DNA of 38,138 nucleotides from positions 1-38,138 of the IMG/VR virus record IMGVR_UViG_3300037458_001599, one strand, 5' to 3'. Both the position numbers and the translations under genes were made by a program. Position 1 is the stretch's first letter. Each line of letters opens with the position of its first letter. Below, one piece after another: positions 6,070-17,208 of the stretch. The notes below the pieces were generated by a model, which worked only from the letters and a program-made list of their open reading frames with translations, did not search any database and was not told where the DNA came from. Source of the stretch: a virus (taxonomy: Duplodnaviria; Caudoviricetes).

Positions 6070-7131
6070 TCACCAGCCCTCGGCCTTCCGGTTCTGGACG
6101 ATGATCGGCAGGCTGATCGTCGGGCCGTGCTCTGGCGTCGAGACCCAGAGCGCCTGCATCGCCGGCTCGGGGCGCAGGTTGAGGCCGTAGGCGAACTCGT
6201 CGTAGCCCTTGAGGCTGCCGCCCATGATCATCCCGCGGAACGGCGGCATGTACTGGTGGAAGTGACCCAGGACCATGACGTGCATCGGCCTGGCCGTCGC
6301 CATCTGGCGCACGGTCTTGCGGTGGACGCCCAGGAGCAGCGGCGCGAGCTCGGCCGAGATGCCGCTCCCGCCGCGGAACTGGTCGCCGTGGGTGAGGGTG
6401 TAGTTGGTCTCGTAGATCCGGACGGTCAGGTCCATCGCGTCGCTCACCTGGAACGTGACGCGCGGGTCGCCGGCGAACCTGGCCGCGACCTGGCGCCAGA
6501 GGAGCCACTCGATGTTCGACTGCGCCCGGTCCTTGAAGACGGGCTTGCGGCTGTTGCGCCCGTGGTTGCCCACGACGCAGGCGACGTGGAGCTTGCCGAA
6601 CTCCTCGGCCAGGGTGCGGAGGGCCGCCGTGAGCTGGCCGATCCAATGGTCGGCCGACTCGTAGAGGGTGCCCTCGTTCGTCTGCTTGAGCTCCTCGTGG
6701 ATGTCGCCCGACAGGATGTCCCCGGTGGCCGGCACGAAGAGCCCCTCGATCTCGACGCCCGCGATGTAGTCGCGGGCCTGGACGATGACCTTCTCGACCC
6801 AGCGGTGGAGCCGGAGCTCGGCGATGCGCCGGTCGTACGCGTTGATCTCGTCGACCTGGATGGGCTCGACGACCTCGTCGAAGTGCGTGTCGGTGAGCTG
6901 CGCGCAGACGATCCCCACATGACGCCCGCCCTTCGACCGCGGCTTCAGGGTCCAGGCCGGCGCGGCCGGCGTGCGCGAGAGCTTGTCGGCCAGGCCGAGC
7001 ACCTTGCGCAGGTCGCGGTTGTCGTCCTCGAGCGCGCGGATGCGCGCCTGGTAGGCGCGCCCCTGGCGGTCGGCCTCGGCGACGCGCTCCTGCTGCTCCC
7101 GGATGGGGGCGAGAGGATCAGGCCCGTCCAC
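6070..7131 (-). CDS. calcineurin-like metallophosphoesterase with N-terminal coiled coil (353 aa)
   Basis: DTH, GDILSGD, GNHG, THGD, GHFH motifs in canonical order. Confidence 0.9.
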   Translation of the reverse strand: MDGPDPLAPIREQQERVAEADRQGRAYQARIRALEDDNRDLRKVLGLADKLSRTPAAPAWTLKPRSKGGRHVGIVCAQLTDTHFDEVVEPIQVDEINAYDRRIAELRLHRWVEKVIVQARDYIAGVEIEGLFVPATGDILSGDIHEELKQTNEGTLYESADHWIGQLTAALRTLAEEFGKLHVACVVGNHGRNSRKPVFKDRAQSNIEWLLWRQVAARFAGDPRVTFQVSDAMDLTVRIYETNYTLTHGDQFRGGSGISAELAPLLLGVHRKTVRQMATARPMHVMVLGHFHQYMPPFRGMIMGGSLKGYDEFAYGLNLRPEPAMQALWVSTPEHGPTISLPIIVQNRKAEGW

Positions 7132-7372
7132 AGCGGCACACTCCCTTCCGGTGGCGCTGGATCGTCTGCGAGTCGCGCGACACGCCGCACTCCTTCGCCA
7201 GCCAGGCCTCGATCGTCACGCCGAGGATCGACGGATCCGCGCATGCCAGGCCGAGCAGGTGGGACTGCCGCTCGGGCAGCTCCTCGAGGAGCCTCCCGAT
7301 GGAGCAGGTCACCACCCTCGGTCGCTGGTAGCGCCGTACCTCCGCGAGCTCGTCGACCGTCGTCGCCATCAC
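7118..7372 (-). CDS. small HTH/Zn-binding protein (84 aa)
   Basis: CSIG..TIEAWL..SQTIQRHRKGVCRC; overlaps the phosphoesterase start. Confidence 0.6.
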   Translation of the reverse strand: MMATTVDELAEVRRYQRPRVVTCSIGRLLEELPERQSHLLGLACADPSILGVTIEAWLAKECGVSRDSQTIQRHRKGVCRCGRA

Positions 7373-7994: not shown

Positions 7995-8398
7995 GGGTTG
8001 ACAACCTGCACGCTATCGTCTAGATTATCGGCACAAGGAGGCGCCGAGATGCTGAAGCACCGATGCAAGGACGGACAGGCCACCAAGCTCGAGCGGCACG
8101 GACCAGTCGGGACGATGGTGGAGGTCACCTTCTCCTGCCCGCGCTGCGGGTGGACGCAGACGGCAGAGGTCATCAAGCGCGAGTCGCTCAAGGCGGTCAA
8201 CGCGGCCTTCGGGCTCGCGCTGAAGTGAAGACGCTCGCGGAGGCGGCGGCGGTCCTCGGACTGTCCGCCGCCACGCTGCGCAACCAGATCCGCAACGGCC
8301 GCCTCCGCGGCCGGCTCGTGGGCAAGACGTGGACCGTCAGCGAGCGCGAGCTGGAGCGGTACAGGGTCGAGTCGCTGGGGAGGCCGGGGCGCCGTCAT
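7991..8398 (-). CDS. possible bridging ORF (135 aa) antisense to the + strand operon
   Basis: GGAGG RBS and ATGA overlap with the methyltransferase stop; TGA overlaps the rusA ATG; sequence does not look like a folded protein. Confidence 0.35.
   Translation of the reverse strand: MTAPRPPQRLDPVPLQLALADGPRLAHEPAAEAAVADLVAQRGGGQSEDRRRLRERLHFSASPKAALTALSDSRLMTSAVCVHPQRGQEKVTSTIVPTGPCRSSLVACPSLHRCFSISAPPCADNLDDSVQVVNP
7998..8026 (+). promoter_or_regulatory. sigma70-type promoter
   Basis: TTGACA-N17-TAGATT followed by AAGGAGG RBS and ATG at 8049. Confidence 0.85.
8049..8228 (+). CDS. small Zn-ribbon-like protein (HRC...CPRC, 59 aa)
   Basis: Own promoter and strong RBS; MLKHRCKDG...FSCPRCGW. Confidence 0.75.
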   Translation: MLKHRCKDGQATKLERHGPVGTMVEVTFSCPRCGWTQTAEVIKRESLKAVNAAFGLALK

Positions 8399-8404
8399 CG
8401 GTAG
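8225..8404 (+). CDS. Xis/MerR-like HTH DNA-binding protein (59 aa)
   Basis: GTGA coupling; TLAEAAAVLGLSAATLRNQIRNGRLRGRLVGKTWTV. Confidence 0.85.
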   Translation: MKTLAEAAAVLGLSAATLRNQIRNGRLRGRLVGKTWTVSERELERYRVESLGRPGRRHR

Positions 8405-9675
8405 TCCTCCACGGCCCTCCGCAGGCGCCAGCCGAGCCACTCGGCCACGGGCGCGACCACGCCGTTCCCGCAGCAGCGATAGCGGTGGCTGTCGAGCCCC
8501 GGCGGGTCAAGGTCGAGGGTCATGCCGGTGGCTCCTCCGACGATGAGGTGCCCCGCCTGTACGTCGTTGTCGTCTGGTCCGCCCCTGACTGGCGAGGGCG
8601 CGTTGACCAGTCGCTGACGATCGTCCAGCCGTCGTCCCAGCCCATCAGCCGCTCGCACTCCGTCGGCGTGAGGCGGCGCACCGTCCACGACGAGGGTGTC
8701 GGTGCCGTCTCCCCGTGGACTGGAGTGGCCGTGGTGGCCTGCGCTGGCGCTGACGGCGTTGGCGAGTCGGACGGGGAGCAGGGTGTCGGTGTCGTCGTCG
8801 TGGCGCTTGTAGCTGGTGCCGGTGACTGCGCGAGCGATGTCAGCGCCGTCTCCAGCTCCGGGGGCAGCGTCCTCCCCCGCTTCGACGCCCGTCGGAGGAT
8901 GCCTTGGGCAGCGCGTGCCGACAGCGAGTATCTCGGCGGCGCGGAGGGCAGCAGCACGTCCGTCAGGGTCGTCGTCACCGCTGCGCACGGCGACGATGAA
9001 GACCCGTCGGCGGCGCTGGGGCACTCCGAAGTGACGAGCGTCGAGCACCCGGTACGCCACGCCATACCCGAGGTCTGCCAGCGCACCGAGGAGTGCCGCC
9101 ATGTCTCGCCCTCCATGACTGGAGAGGAGGCCAGGTACGTTCTCCAGGAGGCAGAGGGGAGGTCGATGCCGTCCCACAAGGTCAAGGAAGGCGAAGGCGA
9201 GGCCGCTGCGGGCACCGGCGAGCCCTCGTCGCTTGCCCGCGACGGAGAGGTCCTGGCAAGGGAAGCCGCCTGACCAGAGGGTTGCGCGATGCCAGGGCTC
9301 CAGCCCATCCCCAGGCCAGTCCCGACCTTGAGTCCCGGCGTGGTCCCATCGTCGTAGGCCCTCATGCCCAGCCCCGCTGTCGGGTCGAAGGCCCAGGTCG
9401 ATGATGTCACCGAGGTTGGGGACACCGGGCCATCGCTCGCGGAGGACGGCGCAGGCGTAGGGGTCGATCTCGCTGACGCTGACGGTGCGCCAGCCGGCAC
9501 GTTCAAGCCCAAGGTCGAGTCCTCCGACGCCGCTGAAGAAGGAGGCGTGGGTGAGAACAGCACGTCCTGCGTGCCCGTCAGCGTCAGGCTCATGTCCTCC
9601 GAGAGCAGCGGACCCTTGCCGCCGCCCTCCTTGCCCTCGCGCATCCGCAGCAGCGTCGGCTTCATCATGGGTCAC
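8395..9675 (-). CDS. DNA (cytosine-5) methyltransferase, alpha-like subunit lacking motif IX (426 aa)
   Basis: FSGVGG (I), EID (II), GFPCQDLS (IV), ENVPG (VI), VPQRRRR (VIII), CGNGVV (X). Confidence 0.92.
   Translation of the reverse strand: MTHDEADAAADARGQGGRRQGSAALGGHEPDADGHAGRAVLTHASFFSGVGGLDLGLERAGWRTVSVSEIDPYACAVLRERWPGVPNLGDIIDLGLRPDSGAGHEGLRRWDHAGTQGRDWPGDGLEPWHRATLWSGGFPCQDLSVAGKRRGLAGARSGLAFAFLDLVGRHRPPLCLLENVPGLLSSHGGRDMAALLGALADLGYGVAYRVLDARHFGVPQRRRRVFIVAVRSGDDDPDGRAAALRAAEILAVGTRCPRHPPTGVEAGEDAAPGAGDGADIARAVTGTSYKRHDDDTDTLLPVRLANAVSASAGHHGHSSPRGDGTDTLVVDGAPPHADGVRAADGLGRRLDDRQRLVNAPSPVRGGPDDNDVQAGHLIVGGATGMTLDLDPPGLDSHRYRCCGNGVVAPVAEWLGWRLRRAVEDYR
8520..9668 (-). CDS. alternative-frame beta-like subunit of the C5 methyltransferase carrying motif IX (382 aa)
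   Basis: Open for 382 codons inside the alpha gene; contains YSLSARAAQGILRRA and VRRLTPTECERLMGWDDGWT (motif IX); ATG just after GAGGAGGAGG. Confidence 0.75.
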   Translation of the reverse strand: MMKPTLLRMREGKEGGGKGPLLSEDMSLTLTGTQDVLFSPTPPSSAASEDSTLGLNVPAGAPSASARSTPTPAPSSASDGPVSPTSVTSSTWAFDPTAGLGMRAYDDGTTPGLKVGTGLGMGWSPGIAQPSGQAASLARTSPSRASDEGSPVPAAASPSPSLTLWDGIDLPSASWRTYLASSPVMEGETWRHSSVRWQTSGMAWRTGCSTLVTSECPSAADGSSSSPCAAVTTTLTDVLLPSAPPRYSLSARAAQGILRRASKRGRTLPPELETALTSLAQSPAPATSATTTTPTPCSPSDSPTPSAPAQATTATPVHGETAPTPSSWTVRRLTPTECERLMGWDDGWTIVSDWSTRPRQSGADQTTTTYRRGTSSSEEPPA

Positions 9676-13827: not shown

Positions 13828-14054
13828 GGCAGCAGCCTCGCCTTCGCCCCGCAGCGGGTCCGCGCGCCGACCGGGGCCGGGCAGGCGATGACCTGGAACG
13901 GGCCGCCCGCCCAGCGGGTGCGGTGGTGATCGGGCGCCTCGCAGACGTACCAGCGGGGAGGCTGGTCGGCAGGACGGGGCCGGGGGTCAGCCCCGTCCTG
14001 CCTCGGCCCGGAGCCCTCCAGTGGCGTGCTGGTGACCGGACCTGATGTGTTCAT
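13824..14054 (-). CDS. hypothetical protein (76 aa)
   Basis: GAGGAGG RBS; ATGA overlaps at both ends. Confidence 0.6.
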   Translation of the reverse strand: MNTSGPVTSTPLEGSGPRQDGADPRPRPADQPPRWYVCEAPDHHRTRWAGGPFQVIACPAPVGARTRCGAKARLLP

Positions 14055-14560
14055 GCCGCCGTCCTCCTCACGTAGGGCAGGGGGCTGTCGCCCCGCTGCT
14101 GGATGACGCACTCCGCGTCACGGCACAGGCCGTCGGGCTCGCAGGCCGCGCAGAACAGCCGCAGCGTCTCGCGGGCGTGGTTGAGCCGGCGGGTGGTGAG
14201 CTGGTCCTGCACCTCGGCCTGCTCGCGGCGGCGGCGGGTCTCCATCGTGTGCTGGCACTTGCGGCTGCAGTAGCGCGCCTTCATGAAGCGCCCCACGTCG
14301 ATGAACGCCTTGCCGCACAGCGCGCACGCCTTCGTCCGCGGGCGCTGCACCATCGTGAGCAGGGAGGGCTGGGACAGCAGGAACGCCAGCTCGAGCGCGT
14401 GCTCGATGCCGGCGAAGCTGCGGCCCGTGCGCCAGGACCAGACCGTCTCGTGACGCACGCCGAGCGCGGCCGCCACGGCGTGGTCCGACATCCTCGCGCC
14501 CGCCATCTCCCGGCCGAGCAGGGCGCCCCAGCGGACGGCACGCTCGTCGCGCTCCTTCAC
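14051..14560 (-). CDS. XRE-like HTH plus Cys-rich Zn-finger regulator (169 aa)
   Basis: SDHAVAAALGVRHETVWSWRTG; CALC..YCSRKC; second cluster CAAC..C..C; GTG start overlapping upstream stop. Confidence 0.75.
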   Translation of the reverse strand: MKERDERAVRWGALLGREMAGARMSDHAVAAALGVRHETVWSWRTGRSFAGIEHALELAFLLSQPSLLTMVQRPRTKACALCGKAFIDVGRFMKARYCSRKCQHTMETRRRREQAEVQDQLTTRRLNHARETLRLFCAACEPDGLCRDAECVIQQRGDSPLPYVRRTAA

Positions 14561-14761: not shown

Positions 14762-16981
14762 TCAGAGCCTTCCGACCGGCGCGAACTCGTCGGCGATGGC
14801 GTCGATGCGGCCCTTGTAGGCGACGATGATGCGCTGCTCGCGCTTGGGGTACTTGCGGAAGTTGAGTGTCTTCTTGGCCTGCGCCAGCCGAGTGAACTCG
14901 GCCTCGAGGTAGATGACCTTGTTGTAGACCGACAGGCCCTGTTCCTTGAAGAACAGCTCCGTCTCGGCTTCGTGGCAGTGGTAGGCGCCCTTGGCGTCCC
15001 GACTGTCGCCGGTCATCACGACGATGAAGCGGTTGTCGCGCAGGTGGTCGATGGCGACCCTGTAGCCCGCGAACAGCGCGTCCCTGAAGTCCTCGTACGT
15101 GGACAGGGCGTTGATCTCGCCATCCGGCGGCGAGCCGTCGTAGTCGACGTACCGCTCCACCCGGTAGTAGGGCGGACAGGCGAAGACCAGGTCGAACTCG
15201 CCCTCGGGCTCATATGTCGAGCTGTCGGCGGCCACCCAGCGCACGTCCGGGAACTGCGAACAGAGCGCGTTGTTGGCGTCGCATTGGTTCTGCCGGATCT
15301 CGCTCGCGAGGTACTGGTAGCCGCTCGCGCCCGCCACGAAACCGAACTGGACACCGCCCCCGAACGGGTTGTAGACGCGCCGCCCCTCGCGGGGCGTGAA
15401 CATCCGAAGGATGATCTCGCAGGCGACGGGGTCGAGGACCGAGGCGTTGCCGTTGTGCGAGCGCCCGGTGACGACGTTCGCGAAGCCGCTCTCGCCCTGC
15501 CAGCAGCCCTCGCGTGTCGCGTAGGCCGGGTTGGGGATGCTCATGTCCTCGCCGACCTGGTCGAGGCGGGCGTTCCACTCCTTCTTGAGCCGGAGCCAGT
15601 CGCCCTTCGTGCTGTCCCAGACGTTCGTGAGCGCGATGTGCGCGAGCGTCTTCAGCCGGTGGTAGGCCGGGTCGCCGGCCAGCATGTACTCGAAGCCCGA
15701 CGCCTTGAGGTACGTCACGAAGCCCAGCTCCTGGAAGACGGCTGGCGTCTCGAACGTGCTCTTGGGGTTCGTCGTCATGAGCATCGGCAGCCCCGCCTCG
15801 TTGCGGGACATGACCGCCAGCACCATCGCGCGGTAGAGCTCGGGCGTGTACAGCGACGGCTCGATGACCGACTGCAGAAGGCAGAACTCGCCTACCTCCC
15901 GGTTGTCCTGGAAGGTCATGAAGCCCGCGAACTCGCCCCCGATGAGGAGGATGACCGCAGAGTGAATCTGCATGTTCTTGCGGGCCGCCCGGTGCGCGAT
16001 GCCGTCCTCCAGCGCCAGCTTGGCGACCTGCTCCTCGAAGCCCGAGCCGATGACCCGCGCCACGTAGCGGAACTCGACATCGTCGCGCGCCGCGAAGACG
16101 GACGCGCCCACCAGCGCGTCATCGGGGAAGAGATACGTTTGGTCCACGACCGGCTGATACGTCATCGGTGCCCCCTCTACTCCGCATTGGTCTGGACAGT
16201 CCGAGCAATGGCCGATGAACACGTCCGGGCGGTGCAGCGACAGCAGCGTCCCGCCTCCCAGCGCGTCCGGCCGATGTGTCGTCAACAGGTCGCCGCTCAG
16301 GACGTGCTCGTTCGTCGGCGTCACGCGCAAGGGCGTGTCGATGACCGGCGCCAGCGTCAGCAGGTAGTCCTGCATCGCCCGCCGCTCACGCGCCCAGTCG
16401 GTATCACCGAAGGCACACGTCACGACGCGGCAGATGCTCCGCACGCCGGCCTCTCGAAGGCGCAGCAGCTGCCCGACGCGGTGACGCGTCTGCGCCTCGG
16501 TGTCGAGGCCGCTCGTGGACGTGTGGACGACGATGTCGAGGTCCAGCATCTGCGAGACCTGGTCATCGGTGAGCGCCTGCCAATGCTTCGTCACGACCAC
16601 GGCCGTCTTCTCGGCGTAGCGCAGGCACCGGATGACGTTCAGCGTGTGCGACCACGCATGGCTCGGGTCGCCCATGACGCCGATGCGGTACCACGTCAGC
16701 GGGTGCTGGCGAAGCTGGCGGATGAGGATGTCGCGGTGCTGGAACTGGTCGACGAAGCCGCGCGTCACGCTCCGGCCGAAGTCCACGCCCCGGAACTCCG
16801 CGATCTTCGCGGCGTAGCACTCGCCGTAGCAGCCGCCCGCCGTCGCCATGCCCTCCGAGCAGCCCTTGACGGTGTCCACGTCCATGCAGCCCTTCGCGTT
16901 CACGGTCGCCGTGATGGCGTCGTGGTACGGGCGTGGCGTGCGCGGGATGTCGAACAGGCGGGGCGCGAAGACGGCCGTCAT
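14762..16981 (-). CDS. fusion: SPL-like radical SAM domain + GNAT-like domain + CPPY-type amino-methyltransferase domain (739 aa)
   Basis: KGC-x9-C-x3-CYA, RIGVMGDP, VVTKH, CxxCxxxC; FAGFMTF..FCLLQSVIEP..FQELGF; NPFGGG, ASEIR, DLVFACPPYY; start reassigned to MTAVF (ATGA overlap). Confidence 0.8.
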   Translation of the reverse strand: MTAVFAPRLFDIPRTPRPYHDAITATVNAKGCMDVDTVKGCSEGMATAGGCYGECYAAKIAEFRGVDFGRSVTRGFVDQFQHRDILIRQLRQHPLTWYRIGVMGDPSHAWSHTLNVIRCLRYAEKTAVVVTKHWQALTDDQVSQMLDLDIVVHTSTSGLDTEAQTRHRVGQLLRLREAGVRSICRVVTCAFGDTDWARERRAMQDYLLTLAPVIDTPLRVTPTNEHVLSGDLLTTHRPDALGGGTLLSLHRPDVFIGHCSDCPDQCGVEGAPMTYQPVVDQTYLFPDDALVGASVFAARDDVEFRYVARVIGSGFEEQVAKLALEDGIAHRAARKNMQIHSAVILLIGGEFAGFMTFQDNREVGEFCLLQSVIEPSLYTPELYRAMVLAVMSRNEAGLPMLMTTNPKSTFETPAVFQELGFVTYLKASGFEYMLAGDPAYHRLKTLAHIALTNVWDSTKGDWLRLKKEWNARLDQVGEDMSIPNPAYATREGCWQGESGFANVVTGRSHNGNASVLDPVACEIILRMFTPREGRRVYNPFGGGVQFGFVAGASGYQYLASEIRQNQCDANNALCSQFPDVRWVAADSSTYEPEGEFDLVFACPPYYRVERYVDYDGSPPDGEINALSTYEDFRDALFAGYRVAIDHLRDNRFIVVMTGDSRDAKGAYHCHEAETELFFKEQGLSVYNKVIYLEAEFTRLAQAKKTLNFRKYPKREQRIIVAYKGRIDAIADEFAPVGRL

Positions 16982-17208
16982 CCCAGCGCCTCGTGCGCCC
17001 GCAGGGCCTCGTCCCAGCCGCAGTCGCACCCGGCGCCCGAGGGCAGGCCGTGGGCCGTCAGCGACGTGCAGGTGACGGCGTGGTGGCCGCGCGTCGCGAG
17101 CCGCTCGGCGTCGGCCCGGAGGGCCTCCTCGCGCGCCGAGATGTAGGCCTCGAGCGACGAGACGAGGGCGGCCATGCGAGGCTCGGCGCGCAGGTCGTCG
17201 AGGGTCAT
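16978..17208 (-). CDS. small His/Cys protein (HH..C..CDCG, 76 aa)
   Basis: GGAGG RBS; ATGA overlaps at both ends. Confidence 0.65.
   Translation of the reverse strand: MTLDDLRAEPRMAALVSSLEAYISAREEALRADAERLATRGHHAVTCTSLTAHGLPSGAGCDCGWDEALRAHEALG

Follow-up and report, generated by a model that had tools for sequence, protein, structure and literature searches.

A phage gene joining radical-SAM, GNAT-fold and amino-methyltransferase-fold domains: a candidate DNA hypermodification module

Which reaction would call for a radical S-adenosylmethionine (SAM) enzyme, a GNAT-fold domain and a DNA methylase-like fold in one polypeptide? The question is raised by a 739-residue open reading frame (14762..16981; ATG at 16981, stop at 14762) in the window, by which we mean the whole stretch of DNA analysed, a complete IMG/VR virus record 38,138 bases long with ~71% G+C. 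The genes and motifs of the window given below with exact coordinates all lie on its minus strand. A first-pass annotation had read this frame as one three-domain fusion gene whose domains modify a DNA base or a nucleotide precursor in successive steps. We find a single gene carrying every motif that had been quoted, and the three-domain module to which it belongs is real, widespread and uncharacterised. Its domains probably work one after another on a base in DNA, and there is a fair chance that the module represents a variant of phage DNA hypermodification with new chemistry.

The start at 16981 is supported by an ATGA overlap, in which the fusion ATG is shared with the TGA stop of a small upstream gene (16978..17208; no PHROG match), an arrangement that predicts translational coupling of the two genes. 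Among 7998 proteins scored, 1860 are homologues at E<=0.001. The best 119 listed are 61–82% identical to the fusion, with query coverage of 94% or more in 118, so that the fusion is not a product of chance. Among 27 matching records examined for cultured phages, none reaches 80% query coverage, so that the complete fusion has no cultured carrier there.

Three folds in one gene

Models, Foldseek, structural matches and PHROG 498 uphold all three domain calls of the first-pass annotation. Domain 1 (residues 14–270; 16172..16942) is predicted to be a radical-SAM enzyme resembling spore photoproduct lyase (SPL). Its model (predicted local distance difference test score, pLDDT, 96.5) has a partial TIM-barrel fold, and the first 40 rows of a structure search (VIA) are all radical-SAM enzymes, by title or name. 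The best structural match is SPL itself (4fhc; Z 12.1, root-mean-square deviation (rmsd) 4.1, 225 aligned, 12% identity), followed by viperin (Z 10.6), and EpeE and SPL fill the top 11 Foldseek rows (E 3.5e-4 to 9.4e-4). Besides a RIGVMGDP motif (16687-16664), the domain carries six cysteines that are invariant in 97/97 aligned sequences. Three of these form C41-x9-C51-x3-C55 (16817..16861), the predicted SAM-binding 4Fe-4S motif, and three form C259xxC262xxxC266 (16184..16207; invariant in 120/120 and 97/97), a predicted second metal site for Zn or an auxiliary Fe-S cluster. The x9 spacing noted at first pass holds for this gene, but not as a family pattern: the first gap is 11 residues in 61 of the 97 sequences, 10 in 28, 9 in six and 12 in two. 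The family motif is therefore C-x9..12-C-x3-C, a non-canonical spacing, and the canonical CxxxCxxC of SPL is absent from the fusion domain.

Sequence profiles place this domain poorly. TIGR04470 gives weak matches in 5/97 members, far below its curated cut-offs; the SPL family TIGR04070 has no row among the 24 families that the 97 members match, and Pfam returns noise only. For the first two domains, PHROGs give nothing and PDB sequence profiles give only repeat or Cys-rich chance matches, plus 3bln at E 0.78. DUF5131/Gp37Gp68, considered for domain 1 on the basis of its C-x6-C-x2-C pattern, was rejected, having no Pfam match among the 97 members. The domain thus resembles 4fhc and the PA0069/TIGR04470-type proteins in its best structural match and its weak TIGR04470 matches, and differs from SPL in cysteine spacing, in the extra C-terminal Cys triad and in its fused modifying enzymes.

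Domain 2 (residues 302–435; 15677..16078; pLDDT 92.1) is modelled as a plain GNAT fold, with NatC (Z 14.6, rmsd 2.2, 130 aligned) and RimI (Z 13.9) as structural matches and Gcn5/PCAF matched by Foldseek. Sister proteins pass PF00583; Pfam gives noise only for the 68 aligned GNAT members of the family, and the ESM Atlas only leads below 0.9. The alignment of these 68 contains 39 invariant positions, including RAARKNMQ and EFCLLQS (in the window, the RAARKN helix at 15991-15974 and the FCLLQS strand at 15886-15869, each invariant in 68/68). What the family lacks is the R/Q-x-x-G-x-G/A loop that holds the acetyl-CoA pyrophosphate: in its place stands the degenerate PSLYTPELY (15833..15859), a variable stretch ending in a Tyr that is invariant in 68/68, where sister proteins have G-x-G-x-A/G. 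A GNAT search of 1.84 billion representatives returned 82 matches, including P0300 and P0316, sister GNAT-methyltransferase fusions that keep the canonical loop, as do 14 sister loci. Because such fusions carry the loop, the alignment is fixed and the loop loss proposed at first pass is confirmed.

Domain 3 (residues 449–739; 14765..15637) is an amino-methyltransferase fold with motif I before motif IV, matched by PHROG 498 (E 1.4e-36) and PHROG 12517 (E 2.9e-38). PF01555 scores 14.4 bits, under its gathering cut-off of 26.7, which several relatives pass. Membership in PHROG 498 is seen in the profile match across the domain, in the placement of motif I before xPPY and in the alignment with cultured members.

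Near-obligate coupling of the three domains

Viral, genome and metagenome scans yielded 158 loci, 122 of them with the loop-less GNAT type (93 clusters at 90%). In all 122, loop-less GNAT and methyltransferase share one open reading frame, and a radical-SAM gene is present in 118: fused in 56, upstream in 11, downstream in 39, and in 12 represented by a second SPL-like family downstream. The remaining four loci are all cut by contig ends. The domains do, in other words, co-occur elsewhere, a point on which the first-pass annotation had staked its proposal, and they do so in four arrangements. The same arrangements recur at 23 bacterial-genome loci, mostly on contigs of metagenome-assembled genomes. 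One locus (L108:2549-4909) holds the module in nine frameshifted pieces, a pseudogene or a long-read error.

When BLAST was applied to 80 viral loci, the radical-SAM domain was found fused in 25, upstream in eight, downstream in 33 and not at all in 14. In fact, ten of these 14 carry directly downstream a different SPL-like radical-SAM gene with the canonical CxxxCxxC. This second family is distant kin of the first (HHalign probability 62.8, E 7e-5). It matches NF033668 in 9/9 members (E 1e-24 in the best member), far below the curated cut-offs, and M6 gp53 at 21.8 bits (shuffles <=1.6). On a methyltransferase tree of 80 rows, no fewer than four fusion-state changes and three radical-SAM swaps are required by well-supported branches; this is a quick tree, from which L082-L085, L089, L095, L107, L108 and near-duplicates over 90% were dropped. 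The radical-SAM partner has therefore been kept through repeated reshuffling.

The canonical-loop relatives provide a comparison. Of 14 such loci, 12 have only that form and none of the 12 has a radical-SAM gene (in five, the sequence extends 1 kb or more to either side). In the remaining two the canonical form stands in tandem with a loop-less paralogue, and a radical-SAM gene is present in one of these tandems. Radical SAM thus tracks the loop-less GNAT. In both tandems (L324:1-2935 and L032:3761-5871) the loop-less GNAT-methyltransferase precedes the canonical one, and in L324 the second radical-SAM family follows.

The same methyltransferase clade is found fused to yet another domain in Riemerella columbipharyngis DSM 24015, where it follows an LPG-synthase/FemAB-like domain (PF09924 E 0.011; TM 0.81 to a DUF2156 model). 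Members of the FemAB-like fold use aminoacyl-tRNA. The domain fused ahead of this clade is always of an acyltransferase fold, whether canonical GNAT, loop-less GNAT or LPG-synthase/FemAB-like. We note that the Riemerella module (L105:3236-4873), in a cultured strain, lies downstream of an SNF2-type helicase gene.

Another recurrent feature is a short peptide resembling those that bind the sliding clamp. The consensus of such peptides is QL[SD]LF; QTYLF of the window (Q281-F285; 16127..16141) is the loose QxxLF form and not this strict consensus. Q-x-x-[LMI]-F occurs in 95/113 fused linkers, 40/51 N-termini of stand-alone GNAT-methyltransferases and 20/65 fused N-termini, as well as in radical-SAM tails of the first (12/46) and second (4/11) family, compared with 8/393 (N-termini) and 4/393 control ends; linkers in these counts average 37 residues and controls 30 and 25. 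The enrichment suggests that the proteins may bind the clamp. Close by, a Shine-Dalgarno-like GAGGGGG before an in-frame ATG (M273; 16163..16177) forms a putative internal start, from which a separate GNAT-methyltransferase protein could possibly be made. Among 25 fused linkers, 22 contain an in-frame ATG and 17 an SD-like word before ATG or GTG.

The genomic setting agrees with a replication-time role. By PHROG matches (39 proteins scanned) the virus is identified as a temperate siphovirus, with terminase, portal, protease, capsid and tail genes at 19.5-38 kb and a repressor and cro-like pair near 17.8-18.4 kb. The fusion gene belongs to a leftward early operon with primase-helicase, exonuclease, C5 methyltransferase, RusA and integrase genes. 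The C5-cytosine enzyme is a second DNA methyltransferase of the operon (8398-9675; PF00145 E 4e-43), and the exonuclease (6070-7372; PHROG 284) is metallophosphoesterase-like with a small Cys-containing partner upstream. The downstream neighbour of the fusion (14051-14560) encodes a helix-turn-helix followed by a CGNR-like zinc finger, both weak matches. The region was found as contigs in three wetland DNA sequencing runs, with no RNA run among those listed.

The methyltransferase family and its remodelled motif I

What domain 3 transfers is the central question, and the two motif changes reported at first pass do not bear on it equally. The catalytic motif of N6-adenine and N4-cytosine DNA methyltransferases is D/N/S-P-P-Y/F, and in this family a Cys replaces its first residue throughout. 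The resulting CPPY (15167..15178 in the window) is present in 80/80 close relatives and in 80/82 clusters of distant ParB-type relatives, which rules out the notion that it is special to the fusion. Since CPPY is a family trait, the informative change is that in motif I (NPFGGGVQFG; 15341..15370), where Asn538 stands for the family Asp and Phe546 for the family Arg. NPFGGGVQ[FM]G is found in 80/80 close loci. In a 109-row alignment, all GNAT-fused rows (17/17) have Asn at position 538, where 91/92 others have Asp. At position 546 the residue is Phe or Met in 17/17 GNAT-fused rows, Arg in 64/67 partner-less rows and 6/7 rows labelled as linked to a pyridoxal phosphate (PLP) enzyme, and Phe in 17/17 rows linked to a SAM decarboxylase. 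In class I methyltransferases this end of the motif I pocket holds the amino-acid arm of SAM, and presumably does so here. The acids that bind the adenosine (ribose, adenine), Glu561 and Asp586, are kept.

Three scans of distant relatives gave 195 loci in 82 clusters at 75%, of which 80 were counted and two with less than 600 bases downstream left out. A SAM decarboxylase accompanies 15 of these clusters, a PLP enzyme five and a radical-SAM or GNAT gene upstream one; the remaining 59 have none of these partners. Cultured decarboxylase-linked cases are P2559S and ZRG1. Vincenzo and Mae-JY30 have an adjoining PLP gene, and in Pam4 and R6L the PLP enzyme is inserted inside the methyltransferase; B054, phiFL3A, Funu2 and prophiGD43A-5 have no decarboxylase or PLP neighbour annotated. 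phiCTP1 gp52 was rejected as a further cultured PLP case (no Pfam match, 2.8 bits in a leave-out test) and keeps its label as one of the seven PLP rows in the tree and alignment counts. In Pam4 gp70 (L083:2012-4501) and R6L gp1 (L118) the insert separates motif I from motif IV. M6 gp52 is a homologue of the PLP partners (65 bits, shuffles <=4.1). The decarboxylase of P2559S has been shown to be active as an S-adenosylmethionine decarboxylase, AdoMetDC (PMC9992855, in the available text); no spermidine synthase is annotated beside it, and the N-terminal partner of P2559S gp66 is ParB-like, not GNAT. Our main ground for doubting plain methylation is that decarboxylase and PLP partners would converge on an aminopropyl-base.

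Other members of the wider family sit in what we regard as phage DNA-modification islands. In L131/L132:812-3813 a ParB-methylase stands behind an SPL-like radical-SAM gene whose product has a C-terminal QISIF peptide (split by a stop in L131). By eye, the ParB-methylase is preceded in L129:3-3831 by ParB, PAPS-reductase-like and GNAT genes, and in L134:451-3816 by an ATPase-GNAT-like gene. The archaeal halovirus HCTV-2 (L117:1739-3967) has a ParB-methylase followed by a second, different methyltransferase.

A proposed pathway and its alternatives

That the three domains share one DNA-modification pathway is, in our judgement, highly probable. As to the chemistry, we tentatively infer an aminoalkyl route, in which the domains would act together on newly replicated phage DNA behind the fork, at the host sliding clamp, and produce a modified base of some bulk. 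First, an amine-bearing SAM chain would be put by the methyltransferase-fold domain, the chain being of 3-amino-3-carboxypropyl or aminopropyl type, on adenine N6 or cytosine N4. The GNAT-fold domain would acylate the amine from a donor other than acetyl-CoA, probably aminoacyl-tRNA, either on the cofactor before transfer or on DNA afterwards, with rearrangement or cleavage of the adduct by the radical-SAM domain as the last step. The purpose may be to shield phage DNA from host nucleases. A nucleotide precursor, the other target named at first pass, is less likely because of the clamp-like peptides and because the families appear to be of base-flipping type.

Several lines of evidence point this way. 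GNAT, methyltransferase and radical SAM are coupled almost without exception. The clade has lost the motif I Asp and Arg of most relatives, and the decarboxylase-linked clade likewise has Phe for Arg. The partners of the distant relatives, the acyltransferase fold of whatever is fused ahead of the clade and the way radical SAM follows the loop-less GNAT count as well. So do the likeness of the second radical-SAM family to gp53 and that of the PLP partners to gp52, and the clamp-like peptides together with the replication-operon position are consistent with action during replication.

A number of observations weigh against the aminoalkyl route. In the window's own clade, a SAM decarboxylase or PLP gene was found in 0/158 scanned loci, and the clade lies on a long branch (1.99 changes per column), so that the argument reaches it by inference from its relatives. 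Most distant clusters, the 59 mentioned above, lack a decarboxylase, PLP or GNAT partner, and the share of 20/80 that have a decarboxylase or PLP partner is inflated because partner-linked queries had been used to start two of the three scans. The cofactor contacts ascribed to Asn538 and Phe546 would follow only by analogy with class I methyltransferases. The change from Arg to Phe counts as one event because the decarboxylase-linked rows form one clade, and an Asp at position 543 of that clade is not shared by the GNAT-fused clade. The 14 canonical-GNAT loci belong to one lineage (74–97% identical) and therefore provide one contrast, not twelve. The closest folds of the GNAT domain are ordinary acetyl-CoA enzymes, and the window's own radical-SAM family has no profile match to M6 gp53. 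Finally, the second radical-SAM family also occurs without a GNAT module, right after a C5-methyltransferase-like gene (by eye) in MT835521.1 (L368:1797-3316), which suggests a wider pairing of SPL-like radical SAM with DNA methylases, and a relative of the same family lies upstream of the ParB-methylase in L131/L132. Radical-SAM genes beside C5-type or ParB methylases fit action on a plain methyl group equally. A complex prediction with GNAT, methyltransferase and radical SAM as three chains scored 0.00 and is not used as evidence.

The radical-SAM genes beside C5-type or ParB methylases lend weight to an alternative that we consider unlikely, in which the methyl group itself is the handle. 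Domain 3 would make N6-methyladenine or N4-methylcytosine, the radical-SAM domain would abstract a methyl hydrogen and the loop-less GNAT would hold the group to be joined; or the GNAT would aminoacylate DNA as Mom does, with tailoring and methylation to follow. The coupling data agree with it as well, as do the retained Glu561 and Asp586, and precedents are described for Mom (PMC13219725) and M6 gp53 (PMC8989533) in the available texts. The methyl handle nevertheless gives no account of why the family has decarboxylase and gp52-like partners, why motif I is remodelled, or why the same clade is fused to canonical GNAT and FemAB-like domains without radical SAM; its Mom version meets with the lack of profile similarity to Mom.

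We think it quite unlikely that the protein is a plain DNA amino-methylase, in which the GNAT would be a dead scaffold or would bind nucleic acid, while the radical SAM would be an independent DNA repair or modification enzyme travelling along. The annotation of PHROG 498 as DNA methyltransferase, the many distant clusters consisting of a ParB-methylase alone, the lost acetyl-CoA loop, the clustering of phage modification genes in islands and the internal start often kept in fused genes would all suit such an enzyme. A dead scaffold, however, is hard to reconcile with the 39 invariant GNAT positions, and a mere fellow traveller with a radical-SAM gene that persists in 118/122 loci despite repeated reordering and non-orthologous replacement, and that is absent where only canonical GNAT is found.

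A target other than DNA (host tRNA, rRNA, protein or free nucleotide) appears very unlikely. The xPPY enzymes with order I-IV include RNA and protein methyltransferases, and the nearest GNAT folds are protein N-acetyltransferases; the best Pfam match, however, is a DNA methylase family, stronger in relatives, the radical-SAM fold is SPL-like, family members are fused to ParB or lie in terminase or replication context, and clamp-like peptides occur on both GNAT-methyltransferase and stand-alone radical-SAM proteins.

Elp3 joins a radical-SAM domain and then a GNAT in one chain, as do 56/122 loci here, and acts on tRNA with an intact acetyl-CoA site; the fusion differs in having no acetyl-CoA loop and an SPL-like barrel. 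Most improbable of all is an Elp3/Trm9-like reaction on DNA, with a radical on GNAT-bound acetyl-CoA, a carboxymethyl group added to the base and methylation by domain 3: the shared domain order and a radical role mentioned for Elongator (PMC13219725, in the available text) speak for it, but the loop is lost precisely in the radical-SAM-bearing clade, domain 3 is an xPPY amino-methyltransferase and not a carboxyl methyltransferase, and it is the methyltransferase, not the radical SAM, to which the GNAT is tied.

Returning to the aminoalkyl route, a close counterpart is found in Pseudomonas phage M6 and in PaMx11, where, in the available text of PMC8989533, an SPL-like radical SAM and a GNAT tailor adducts of amino acids or amines on phage DNA: M6 gp53 is a radical-SAM isomerase of glycine on DNA thymine, M6 gp52 a PLP enzyme decarboxylating amino acids hung on DNA, and PaMx11 gp48 an acetyltransferase in thymidine tailoring. 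M6, however, employs a kinase and an amino acid:DNA transferase and starts from 5-hydroxymethyldeoxyuridine (5-hmdU) (PMC8989533), whereas the present domains are fused and anchored by an amino-methyltransferase fold, and the window's radical SAM differs from gp53 in its C-x9..12-C-x3-C motif. No 5-hmdU kinase or amino acid:DNA transferase was matched among the 39 window proteins (PHROGs) or recurrent neighbours. For the loop-less GNAT the model is Mu Mom, a GNAT fold that acts on phage DNA with Gly-tRNA and not acetyl-CoA as donor and, as far as the available text of PMC13219725 goes, works alone. The likeness to Mom drawn at first pass survives only as one of working principle. Against the GNAT profiles Mom scores at best 1.1 bits (shuffles up to 3.5), and the secondary structure of our model has no helix-turn-helix insertion of the kind described for Mom in that text. 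In the structure searches, 238 chains reach Z 8, and the 50 of them listed, like the Foldseek rows listed, do not include Mom. On the features tested, the fusion belongs to none of SPL, Mom and Elp3.

A further parallel is CmoA-CmoX-CmoY of Synechococcus phage S-B43, in which a DNA-methylase fold transfers a non-methyl group from tailored SAM and further tailoring follows; it differs in being a C5-cytosine enzyme that uses carboxymethyl and an ATP-dependent ligase, with no radical SAM or GNAT in the available text (PMC12783734). Within the family itself, the methylases of PHROG 498 and the ParB-terminase loci (B054 gp77, phiFL3A gp36, P2559S gp66) share the domain, motif order and CPPY with the fusion. 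The fusion is 26–35% identical to them, belongs to a long-branch clade, and carries GNAT where they have ParB; the clade's NPFGGGVQ[FM]G corresponds to their DPFAGGSVRG. ParB-terminase loci with phage DNA methylases are mentioned in the available text of PMC4738411, and we found no biochemical test of this methylase family in the literature. A full-text search, which left most subscription papers outside its reach, found no description of this architecture or of any such enzyme that transfers an aminopropyl or aminocarboxypropyl group to DNA.

The fullest generalisation is a widespread phage system in which a methylase fold serves as aminoalkyl transferase, a loop-less GNAT aminoacylates from charged tRNA and an SPL-like radical-SAM enzyme remodels the product at the replication clamp, so that a purine or cytosine is hypermodified in three steps with part of the SAM backbone passed to DNA; as a whole we regard it as doubtful. 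It is open to direct test, since the fusion is one 2.2-kb gene and cultured phages hold simpler versions of the same methyltransferase family. In sum, the module suggests that behind the annotations 'DNA methylase' and 'hypothetical' there is a common kind of phage DNA modification that is still uncharacterised. If the proposal is true, a methylase fold would hand the other arm of SAM to DNA, radical chemistry on DNA would reach beyond SPL and M6 gp53, and phages would have a new base, which may serve as a new anti-restriction strategy and provide a DNA-labelling handle.

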